Shown here: positions 4,371-6,215 of the stretch, in pieces
Numbering within the stretch: the stretch's first letter is position 1
How the letters are laid out: each line of letters starts with the position of its first letter
Origin: an uncultured Bacteroidales bacterium
GTDB taxonomy: Bacteria > Bacteroidota > Bacteroidia > Bacteroidales > UBA12077
Length of the DNA stretch: 59,487 nt
Direction: 5' to 3'
NCBI GenBank assembly: GCA_964587535.1
Contig: CAZPMA010000003.1
Location: forward strand, 1 to 59,487
Notes under the pieces: model-generated
Told to the model about the DNA's origin: nothing
Database searches by the model: none
What the model saw: the letters and a program-made list of their open reading frames with translations, nothing else
Program-made: the position numbers and the translations under genes

Positions 4371-4448
4371 TACTTCGATAAACTCAGTATAACAGCTTCC
4401 AATTCTAATTGTCACACTGTCCCGATAGCTATCAGGATTGTCGAAGTG
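4371..4448. repeat. Inverted pair of REP-like palindromes; the second carries an 18-bp palindrome insert
   Basis: 4371-4393 tacttcgataaactcagtataac is a degenerate reverse complement of 4411-4448 gtcacactg[tcccgatagctatcagga]ttgtcgaagtg. Confidence 0.7.
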
Positions 4449-4467
4449 TTTACAATTATAAAAATTT

Positions 4468-5835
4468 CTAAAAATATTTTTCGGGATCAACATTCTCCCC
4501 ATCTTTCTTTATTTCATAGTGCAGATGTGAACCAGTTGACAAACCAGAACTTCCAACATATCCAATTACATCACCTTGTTTCACTTCTTGCCCTTCCTTT
4601 ACATTATAAGCAGAAAGTTGCGAATACAAAGTTGAATATTCATTTGCATGGTCAATAATAATATATCTTCCATATCCTTTGCCTTCGGTATGATTTTGTT
4701 TTACTGTACGAACCAAACCATTTGCTGTAGCATATACTGGAGTTTCCTTTGGAGCTTTAATATCAACGGCACTATGCATCATCTTCTTTTTTGAGATTGG
4801 ATGAATTCTAATACCAAACCCTGAACTTATTTTAACTCCTTCTACTCTTTTAACAGGGAAAATGGAAGGTATTTCTGTTGATCTTTTTTCAAGCATTTGA
4901 GATGTATCCTGTCTTTTAATATTCATTTCAGAACTTAGGTTTACCGTAAATGCCATCAACAATACTGCAACTAAAGGTAATATTAATAATGCTTTTAGCT
5001 TTGAAACTTTTCCTGATTTTATTCTTGTCATCATGTGTATTCTGTTTTTTGTTAGTGAATAATTAAACTGACTGGCAAGACTTACATTCAGACTTTTCTC
5101 AATTTGGCTAAGAATAAGCTTTTGATAAGCAATTTTGTCATTTTTCTTTATCAAGACTCCCCTATCGGCCAAATATTCATGAATTTCTTTAAATGCCTGT
5201 CTATACCTGTAAATGAAAGGATTAAACCACTGAAGAACAAGTATAATTTCAAGTAGAATTACATCAAATGAATGTTTCTGTTTTACATGTGTAATTTCAT
5301 GTAATAATAGTTCATTCGATCCTTCCCGATTCCCAATAGCTATCGGGATATCGGGAGTGCCAAAATCATCTTTATCTATAAAAATGTAATTAAAAAATGA
5401 GAATGGTGTACTAGATTCCTTTAAAAGAACTAGTTTATAAGTATCATAATTTATAATCTCATTGGCTTGTATTTTTTTTATAATTTTAAAAAACTGATTA
5501 AACAACCTTATAGAAAAAACGCTTATTATCAATAAATAAAAGAGCAATACAAAATTTATTTTAGGAAGTACTTGTAAAGCATTAGTTTCCAAAACTTCTA
5601 CTGCTGTACTAATCCCAATATACTCATTAAATTCAAACTGATTATGAGAATTAACCAATTCGTTTGAAACTGAAAATTCAAGAATTGGAACAATTAATGA
5701 AAATAACAGTCCAAATAAAAGAAAGTACCGGTTAAATCGAAACCATGTATCCCTTTTAAAGAATAATTCATAAAATAAATAAAACAAAGAAATTGATATT
5801 CCTGATTCTATGATGTAAATAATAAAACGATGCAT
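4468..5835 (-). CDS. BlaR1-like M56 peptidase fused to a C-terminal M23 peptidase domain
   Basis: N-terminal TMs, FSFFNYIF, HEITH zinc motif; M23 motifs HSAVD and HLHYE; coupled to the BlaI gene. Confidence 0.9.
   Translation of the reverse strand: MHRFIIYIIESGISISLFYLFYELFFKRDTWFRFNRYFLLFGLLFSLIVPILEFSVSNELVNSHNQFEFNEYIGISTAVEVLETNALQVLPKINFVLLFYLLIISVFSIRLFNQFFKIIKKIQANEIINYDTYKLVLLKESSTPFSFFNYIFIDKDDFGTPDIPIAIGNREGSNELLLHEITHVKQKHSFDVILLEIILVLQWFNPFIYRYRQAFKEIHEYLADRGVLIKKNDKIAYQKLILSQIEKSLNVSLASQFNYSLTKNRIHMMTRIKSGKVSKLKALLILPLVAVLLMAFTVNLSSEMNIKRQDTSQMLEKRSTEIPSIFPVKRVEGVKISSGFGIRIHPISKKKMMHSAVDIKAPKETPVYATANGLVRTVKQNHTEGKGYGRYIIIDHANEYSTLYSQLSAYNVKEGQEVKQGDVIGYVGSSGLSTGSHLHYEIKKDGENVDPEKYF
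5324..5356. repeat. Nested palindrome inside the M56 coding sequence
   Basis: tcccgat-tcccaatagctatcggga-tatcggga; read in frame as (T)PDIPIAIGNR(E). Confidence 0.8.
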
Positions 5836-6215
5836 TATTCAGACTTTTTCTTTTTTTTAATTTGTTCTTCAACTTGCTTTTTTAACTGTTCTAATTCACT
5901 TAAGCTAAGATCATTTTCCGAAGCAAAAAATGAAACTAGTTTGCTTGCCGAATTATTAAAGAATCCTTTAATAGCATGTTTGAAAAACACTTTTGTATAT
6001 TCCTTTTTACTTATTTCAGGATAATATTCGTTTGATTTTCCATAAGTTCTATATCCTATAAAACCTTTATTAACTAAAACTCTCACTACTGTAGAGATTG
6101 TTGTGTATGCAGGTTTTGGATCGGGATATTGATCAACAATATCTTTCAAAAATCCTTTTTCAATATCCCAGAGATATTGCATTACTTGTTCTTCAGCTTT
6201 GGTTAATTCTTTCAT
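5835..6215 (-). CDS. BlaI/MecI/CopY-family repressor
   Basis: LTKAEEQVMQYLW, PAYTTISTVVRVL, FFNNSASKLVSFF; upstream of M56 gene. Confidence 0.93.
   Translation of the reverse strand: MKELTKAEEQVMQYLWDIEKGFLKDIVDQYPDPKPAYTTISTVVRVLVNKGFIGYRTYGKSNEYYPEISKKEYTKVFFKHAIKGFFNNSASKLVSFFASENDLSLSELEQLKKQVEEQIKKKKKSE

Follow-up and report, generated by a model that had tools for sequence, protein, structure and literature searches.

Two nested 18-nt palindromes in a BlaR1-like M56/M23 peptidase gene of a Bacteroidales bacterium: a probable case of successive insertion by a minute dispersed hairpin element

The window, i.e. the whole 59,487-nt stretch of DNA from an uncultured Bacteroidales bacterium that was analysed, contains at 4468-5835 on the minus strand a gene for a 455-aa protein that joins a BlaR1-like M56 sensor-peptidase to an M23 peptidase at its C-terminus (Pfam Peptidase_M56 and Peptidase_M23). 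A BlaI-like repressor gene (Penicillinase_R) is located immediately upstream in the same operon, at 5835-6215 on the minus strand. The gene was assigned to the BlaR1/M56 type on the basis of the Peptidase_M56 domain with HExxH and of this adjoining repressor; its reading frame is intact and every invariant residue is retained. At 5324-5356 the gene carries a nested double insert of 33 nt, an 18-nt palindrome within another, which encodes (T)PDIPIAIGNRE of the M56/M23 protein. A second copy of the 18-mer, TCCCGATAGCTATCAGGA, with one mismatch, was found at 4420-4437, 30 nt past the stop codon of the same gene.

On the plus strand the insert is composed of TCCCGAT (5324-5330), TCCCAATAGCTATCGGGA (5331-5348) and TATCGGGA (5349-5356). 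The first and the last piece are the split arms of the outer copy and correspond to ATCGGGA and TCCCGATA on the coding strand, respectively. The middle piece is the inner copy, which has the loop AGCT, is read in the PIAIG frame and differs from the unit by one mismatch, an A for G on the plus strand (ATTGGGA on the coding strand). The coding-strand DNA, TCCCGATA/TCCCGATAGCTATTGGGA/ATCGGGA, is translated as TPDIPIAIGNRE, nine codons ahead of HEITH. The outer arms add up to 15 nt (7+8) and 3 nt of the outer copy have therefore been lost: its central 3 nt were swapped for the second 18-mer, with a net gain of 15 nt in the second event. A sequence-only reading of the window had described an 18-mer nested in an 18-mer with a net +15 nt, and the letters agree with it save for the inner-copy mismatch. 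With up to 2 mismatches to the unit, two matches were obtained in the window (4420 and 5331), whereas 100 dinucleotide-preserving shuffles gave none.

The spacer from FSFFNYIFI to HE, given earlier as 25 aa against about 15 in homologs, was measured to be 25 aa here and 15 aa in the insert-free orthologs, which corresponds to the 10-aa insert expected from an alignment with M56 homologs. In the AlphaFold model the insert residues 162-169 form a coil with a pLDDT (predicted local distance difference test) below 50, located between the strand 150-154 and the HExxH helix 170-185. The insert is thus predicted to be a disordered loop ahead of the HExxH helix, and such a low-confidence coil would be tolerated by the protein. 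Two other long low-confidence linkers, 54-90 and 298-317, are present in the same model.

For the state counts and the tree, 69 orthologs were drawn from a large protein collection. The site is empty in 39 of them, with GSI where the insert would be, whereas a single copy (PDNYRD or PDSYRD, three of them decayed) was detected in 12, a double or compound insert in 5, a scar (DYRD or DYRN) in 4 and a 3-aa deletion in 9. The 39 orthologs with GSI contradict the possibility, raised in the sequence-only reading, that homologs share the inserted residues without the palindrome. Twelve of the 16 same-genus orthologs read DYGSI-GSNELLLHE with nothing in between. The closest relatives of the window, with ~86% nucleotide identity, provide a series of 0, 1 and 2 copies with +15 nt at each step, in line with the two +15-nt events proposed earlier. 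The site of L162 is empty, TTTGGTTCT/ATC/GGATCG (GGTTCT/ATC/GGATCG), and that of L161 has a single copy, TTTGGTTCT/CCCGATAACTATCGGGAA/GGATCG. For the tree the insert columns were taken out; it pairs the double P0001 with the single-copy P0002 (support value 95) and places the empty P0003 outside them. Since P0002 has the outer-type copy alone and groups with P0001, the inner copy is probably the younger and the outer copy the older one. Four more filled/empty pairs, 86-92% identical at the nucleotide level, were determined in separate clades. Sites entered by the element are vacant in close relatives.

The tree needs at least 14 state changes at this one position, and most of them should be gains, because regaining GSI from a filled allele takes two separate deletions. 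The M56/M23 codon position has been struck repeatedly in different lineages. The second, nested insertion has the split 8/7 in the window, against 9/6 in G016, and the reading frames differ, which indicates that the nested insertions of the two were independent. The element-derived peptides of 120 homologs were all located at this single codon position; as one site is used despite the linkers 54-90 and 298-317, the position appears to be set by targeting and not by tolerance alone. The site is flanked by the direct repeats GGTTC and GGATC. The nine orthologs without GSI (DY-GS; P0049, P0057-P0063 and P0068) carry a 9-nt deletion between these repeats, showing that the hot spot is also prone to slippage. 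Old copies also degenerate or lose parts through slippage: the scar allele GATTAT/CGGGAT/GGATCA is the exact product expected from a TTAT..TTAT slippage deletion of the single-copy allele, and degenerate copies were found at the site in L003, P0052 and P0055. A +12 form of the site also occurs (P0066 and P0008).

Nesting was detected in 14 of 241 examined copies, most of them in non-coding DNA, and is explained by the element's own copies being preferred targets. The outer pieces sum to 15 nt in 8 of the 14, with the splits 5/10, 6/9, 7/8, 9/6 and 11/4; the sum is 12 in three, 11 in two and 9 in one. The modal event is 18 nt in and 3 nt of the target out, resulting in a net gain of 15 nt. A pure 15-nt insertion model was also considered and fits none of the junctions. 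Some copies are located within short tandem repeats, and an extra base after the unit varies between T, A and C. The earlier proposal was that a frame-keeping size lets the element colonise reading frames. The size of +15 is confirmed; however, the same 18 in and 3 out occurs in non-coding DNA too, so frame preservation is built into the process and selection is not its sole cause. Colonisation of genes is seen in about 7 of 131 copies, located in rnhB, an aroA/murA-like gene, a histidine kinase gene, sdaA, glnS, lpdA and a gene for a tetratricopeptide repeat (TPR) protein, and all the copies in real genes read in two stop-free frames. Such coding copies are nevertheless a small minority, ~5%, and the other ~95% are intergenic. 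The copy at C11:8849 of the genome G000 was rejected as a second coding copy, as it sits upstream of the true start of the aldehyde dehydrogenase gene.

The unit was determined to be TCCCGATAnnTATCGGGA, i.e. TCCCGATA-nn-TATCGGGA, with AGCT as the main loop and two of the three frames stop-free (PDSYRD and PIAIG). Of 131 copies, 90 have the loop AGCT. At positions 8-11 the most frequent variants, AGTT/AACT (21 of 131) and AATT (7 of 131), are C-to-T transitions from AGCT, which may reflect deamination of methylated or single-stranded C. In G000, AATT (4 copies) is more frequent than AGCT (2). The flanks of 177 unique copies hold ~0 bits beyond position -1, where only T is depleted, and the unit is thus sharply 18 nt. 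A mobile or an expanding element had been proposed from the letters; the first term fits, and the second was rejected because one sharply bounded unit recurs at unrelated sites. The 18-nt palindrome is a discrete unit which has repeatedly entered new sites, this gene twice.

The genome G000 (3.11 Mb, 30.9% GC, 92% complete) has 11-15 copies. The pattern was searched with at most 1 mismatch in the genus and the order, and as exact matches in other orders and classes. Within the genus, 36 of 37 genomes carry it, with 1-59 copies each. For the order the figure is 73 of 201 (66 of 167 genera), with no genome exceeding 72 copies; genomes from other orders of the class yielded it in 15 of 32 cases, with at most 45 copies, and those from other classes of the phylum in 4 of 114, always as 1 copy. 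The reversed-pattern control gave 0 to 3 matches in total over all searches. The enrichment that the sequence-only reading expected genome-wide is accordingly observed in the genome, the genus, the order and the class. A scan with one genome per species yielded at least 120 loci; among the matches listed, 118 of 120 were from Bacteroidota, including Bacteroidales, Flavobacteriales, Chitinophagales, Sphingobacteriales, Cytophagales and Saprospiraceae, and one match in a Nodosilinea metagenome-assembled genome (MAG) was at chance level. Judging by the names that the orthologs carry, the organism of the window belongs with Bacteroidales/Marinilabiliales MAGs. The exact 18-mer was also present in 46 stretches of phage contigs, which carry portal, capsid-like and terminase genes. 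Within a genus the copy number is very patchy (72 vs 0 and 46 vs 0). No Rfam family covers the 18-mer, and its sequence was not found in the literature searched.

Other small repeats were observed in the vicinity of the 18-mer. A sister palindrome, TCCCGAAAGCTTTCGGGA, with identical arms, the loop AAGCTT and a stop-free frame 1 (L021:2029, L024:1873 and L026:2229), is present in relatives and nests with the 18-mer; in P0019 it is apparently located within the M56 insert (peptide SRKLPKVFGTG). A hairpin composite, CCTCACCCC ... CTCTCC-GAAG-GAGAGGGG, adjoins the 18-mer in the phage contigs L175, L177, L185, L201 and L216, lies beside it also in L041 and L053, and is probably another family of small hairpin elements. 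In G003, a non-coding repeat of ~500 nt occurs in three copies ~90% alike (L022:2332-2853, L023:1926-2432 and L031:553-1058) with the 18-mer ~100 nt from one end, and a 60-nt piece of it, consisting of a hairpin, ACAAAAAA, the 18-mer and CAAGAC, is common to another genus (L137).

The copy downstream of the M56/M23 gene is set in the loop of a different hairpin. A hairpin resembling repetitive extragenic palindromic (REP) sequences, ACACT-TCGACAA[GCT]C-AGTGT-GAC, lies at 4411-4449 on the minus strand with its loop GCT replaced by the 18-mer; the empty family consensus is ACTTCGACAAGCTCAGTGTGAC. An insert-free partner, ACTTCGATAAACTCAGTATAA, is located in inverted orientation at 4372-4392 on the plus strand and forms a REPIN-like doublet with it. 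At this downstream position L161 is filled, CTTCGACAA/18-mer/CAGTGTG, and L162 is empty, CTTCGAC-TAGCT-CAGTGTG. The REP-like family comprises ~25 copies in G000, often as inverted doublets, with the conserved loop TTCGACAAGCTCAG followed by GAC and with covarying 5-bp stems (ACACT/AGTGT, CATAC/GTATG, CATCC/GGATG and others). The 18-mer stands in place of the loop triplet GCT in three copies (C28, C40 and 4420 of the window). A description in which arms were added round a retained TAGCT loop was rejected, since the family consensus AAGCT shows that the unit replaces GCT. Further REP-like copies of G000 lie at C11:17079/17112, C22:8454/8500, C52:6053/6079, C4:4130 and elsewhere. One copy is located ~126 nt past a 200-aa Y1_Tnp open reading frame (ORF; C4:3402-4002), on the basis of which the family may be the REP/RAYT system of the genome (RAYT, REP-associated tyrosine transposase). 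In relatives, the intergenic region past the M56/M23 gene holds GC-rich nested hairpins that differ by species (L233, L234, L237 and L239), e.g. ATCCCCC..TTCCCCCTTTAAAAAAGGGGGA..GGGGGAT in L239, and hairpin repeats in general seem to land in this region.

A similar placement was observed at tRNA genes. Seven loci have a 5' tRNA pseudo-copy directly ahead of the intact gene of that tRNA, and in the pseudo-copy the 18-mer occupies the place of the D-loop bases GTT, AGT, AGTT or AGAT. These loci are C29:167-184 and C113:251-268 of G000 and L126, L027, L156, L079 and L117; the 5' copies (Arg, Ala, Asn, Gly, Pro and Met) are truncated or decayed and are located 6-100 nt upstream of the intact gene. 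A tRNA gene was found within 300 nt of 11 of 131 copies, about 10 times a rough guess (not a computed value) for random positions. A strong outer hairpin, with a flank duplex of -10 kcal/mol or lower, was determined for ~18% of copies in comparison with 6% of control positions, and in L038, L192 and L217 copies form the tip of terminator-like stems with a T run behind them. The loops of other hairpins are also struck, namely those of REP-like hairpins and of terminators, and the D-loops in redundant tRNA copies. The common theme of the targets would be DNA able to loop out single-stranded, which would cover hairpin loops, slipped direct repeats as at the M56 site and the element's own hairpin.

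The 33 nt of the M56/M23 gene arose, with good confidence, when a non-autonomous 18-nt hairpin element, dispersed in Bacteroidia and their phages, inserted twice in succession. ORFs were clustered around the 131 genomic and ~50 phage copies, and no gene was found to travel with the element; for this reason, the copies would be made by an enzyme acting in trans. Such an enzyme would work on transiently single-stranded or looped-out DNA and might be encoded by the host or by a phage. More tentatively, and with the odds leaning slightly against it, the 18-mer could be one family of widespread and essentially undescribed tiny hairpin elements that are copied into single-stranded loops, with target deletion, by a trans-acting host or phage enzyme.

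Several observations weigh against insertion by a dedicated element. More than 70% of the copies have no obvious hairpin or tRNA context, the target loss is inconstant (3, 4, 6 or 7 nt), and direct repeats of 4-13 nt flank some copies, unlike the products of a precise transposase. No mobilising enzyme was found around the copies. The RAYT or other transposase proposed earlier was not encountered as a neighbour: no 18-mer lies within 700 nt of the 2 Y1_Tnp genes of G000 or within ~1 kb of 14 Y1_Tnp genes in genomes with 0-72 copies, i.e. none of the 16 is linked to it within ~0.7-1 kb. The RAYT/IS200 link was therefore rejected, as Y1_Tnp genes are present and none has the 18-mer nearby; these genes are commoner in motif-rich genomes (7 vs 1 and 4 vs 2). 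DUF559 was not found in G000, G210 (46 copies) or G224 (58 copies), only fragments of it were detected in G103 and G234, and a full-length form with a DUF559 gene bracketed by the repeat was not found in the genomes examined. A link with reverse transcriptases was rejected too, since RVT_1 shows no contrast between copy-rich and empty congeners. For the GIY-YIG genes, congeneric pairs speak against a link, G103 having 72 copies with 4 GIY-YIG matches and G234 having 0 copies with 17.

The GIY-YIG genes are a lead only. Their counts correlate with copy number over 201 genomes with a rho of 0.40, uncorrected for kinship or genome size. Of the genomes with at most 1 match, 0 of 79 have 4 or more copies, compared with 34 of 122 of those with more matches; many GIY-YIG-rich genomes are without the 18-mer. 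A small GIY-YIG gene after tRNAs, at three loci, was the exception as a recurrent neighbour, and an 18-mer-like hairpin was found within ~600 nt in 3 of 10 inspected tRNA-GIY-YIG cassettes. GIY-YIG genes (~111-aa open frames) form tandem arrays with a 336-nt period beside a tRNA gene in L166 (G213:C1:552859-555087) and in other genomes, and G000 has a single small one after tRNA-Pro (C97:10644-10856). In L114 a pair of copies brackets 1.4 kb of DNA; this case was dropped, as an XRE-like protein and a membrane protein are all that the segment codes for.

The main rival explanation is that existing copies serve as templates during replication or break repair, through copy-choice template switching or short-patch gene conversion guided by short matches at slippage- or structure-prone sites, and that no dedicated mobility system is involved. 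The targets do often share bases with the element: several empty M56 alleles contain ATCGGA, AGCT/TAGCT is found both in the REP-like loop and in the D-arm of tRNAs, and in nesting the target is itself a whole copy. The M56 site also lies between GGTTC and GGATC, where slippage deletion occurred in 9 orthologs, and the varying target loss, the variable base (T, A or C) after the unit and the lack of a linked enzyme would all be expected from such copying. Against this, the boundaries of the unit are sharp with almost no donor flank carried along, the junctions retain both copies of the microhomology and not one, and gaining lineages include empty alleles without an ATCGG match (P0039 TCTATAGGA and P0014 TCAATTGGT). 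The bursty and patchy copy number of congeners (72 vs 0, 46 vs 0) is better explained by an activity that is gained and lost than by universal repair. We consider templated copying improbable, though it deserves more credit than the two explanations that follow.

In principle selection could instead maintain the 18-mer mainly for a function, as a palindrome bound by a protein or as a hairpin of an RNA or a terminator, and the coding copy would then be an incidental by-product. The exact sequence is conserved throughout the class, many copies are intergenic, some cap terminator-like stems with T runs (L038, L192, L217), and copies are ~10-fold enriched near tRNA genes against the rough estimate. 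Yet no Rfam family matches, in-gene copies decay freely, presence is patchy even inside genera, copies sit in the D-loops of dead tRNA copies, and nesting, at the cost of an intact outer copy, is frequent (14 of 241). A function at a locus would also leave the arrival of an identical 18 nt at new sites unexplained, and we regard selection for function as very unlikely to be the primary explanation. Local growth of a short pre-existing palindrome by hairpin slippage or fold-back synthesis could draw on the empty site TTCGATCGGA, which is nearly palindromic in many orthologs, and on the nested form, which can be written as a tandem duplication of both arms (8+7 nt). The product is however letter-for-letter the class-wide 18-mer and has CCC/GGG, whereas the target offers no more than CC/GG; the same 18-mer occurs in the REP-like loop and in tRNA D-loops without such a seed, and the nested splits are often off-centre (5/10, 9/6, 11/4). 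Local growth is excluded by the identity of the insert at unrelated sites.

The closest described kinds of element are the small dispersed repeats (SDR) of cyanobacteria and the Rickettsia palindromic elements (RPE). SDR4-6, attributed to Elhai et al. in 2008, are reportedly hairpins of 21-27 nt from Nostoc punctiforme and its relatives. Both they and the 18-mer are very small hairpin-forming dispersed repeats, mobile by inference from filled and empty sites with no linked gene, and both insert into their own kind and into short palindromes; the 18-mer has the features of this type, i.e. a hairpin unit below 30 nt, tens of copies, filled and empty sites, nesting and no linked gene. HIP1, GCGATCGC, is reported as an insertion site of SDR5 (PMC5861425), and in parallel many empty M56 sites here contain CGATCG. 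The SDR4-6 sequences are presumably unrelated and are known only from Nostocaceae within Cyanobacteria, whereas the 18-mer is found in the class Bacteroidia and phages, is a perfect palindrome, has the signature of 18 in and ~3 out, and strikes one coding hot spot often.

RPE-1 to RPE-8 are said to have been described by Ogata et al. in 2000. Like the 18-mer, they are palindromic, lie in frame in functional genes, are read as extra peptide loops and have no associated transposase. They are ~100-150 bp long and known only from Rickettsia, whereas the 18-mer is 18 nt long, occurs in Bacteroidia and is mostly intergenic; self-nesting at this scale has not been reported for RPEs. These elements have been reviewed (PMC3733652). 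The analogy drawn in the sequence-only reading holds in part: the 18-mer lies in frame in functional genes and is absent from orthologs, while the length (100-150 bp) and the Rickettsia consensus differ. The modal 3-nt target deletion, the other losses of 4-7 nt and the direct repeats of 4-13 nt in some copies set the 18-mer apart from miniature inverted-repeat transposable elements, which have terminal inverted repeats and duplicate a target site of fixed length.

REP and REPIN elements are associated with RAYT (Y1, IS200-like) transposases (PMC3116915; PMC3733652). Similarly to the 18-mer, ~5% of whose copies nevertheless lie in real genes, they are short GC-rich intergenic palindromes with tens of copies that form hairpins in single-stranded DNA, and REPs are known as targets for other insertions. 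In contrast, the 18-mer lacks the GTAG or CGTC tag (177 unique copies) and the doublet organisation, Y1_Tnp genes are not flanked by it, and the Y1 gene of G000 adjoins the REP-like family, itself a target of the 18-mer. The GC clusters of yeast mitochondria and the double-hairpin elements of Allomyces and chytrid mitochondria are 30-80 nt long with some target duplications. They resemble the 18-mer as small GC-rich palindromes of AT-rich genomes, inferred to be mobile, with occasional coding or rRNA copies and nesting, and differ in being organellar, eukaryotic, longer, of other sequence and in part accompanied by target duplications. SegB is a free-standing GIY-YIG homing endonuclease in the tRNA gene cluster of T4 (PMC2330249). 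Small GIY-YIG genes adjoin tRNA genes in the present genomes too, but the correlation with copy number is weak and contradicted within genera.

If 18-nt units really move, they would define the lower size bound of mobile DNA and be about the smallest known. Insertion with target loss instead of duplication, preference for loops and self-nesting would, if true, represent a chemistry that the usual transposase families do not explain. The M56 locus is a clean natural experiment, with 0, 1 and 2 copies, scars and decayed copies at one codon over 69 orthologs, and its empty site supplies a ready target sequence, GATTATGGTTCGATCGGATCAAATGAA, for an insertion assay. For annotation, the 18-mer hairpins are a likely cause of contig breaks and spurious ORFs in Bacteroidia MAGs. 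With regard to protein evolution, 5-aa modules (PDSYR and PIAIG) are added to surface loops of enzymes, and the 18-mer would, if this reading is true, steadily supply proteins with in-frame loop insertions.

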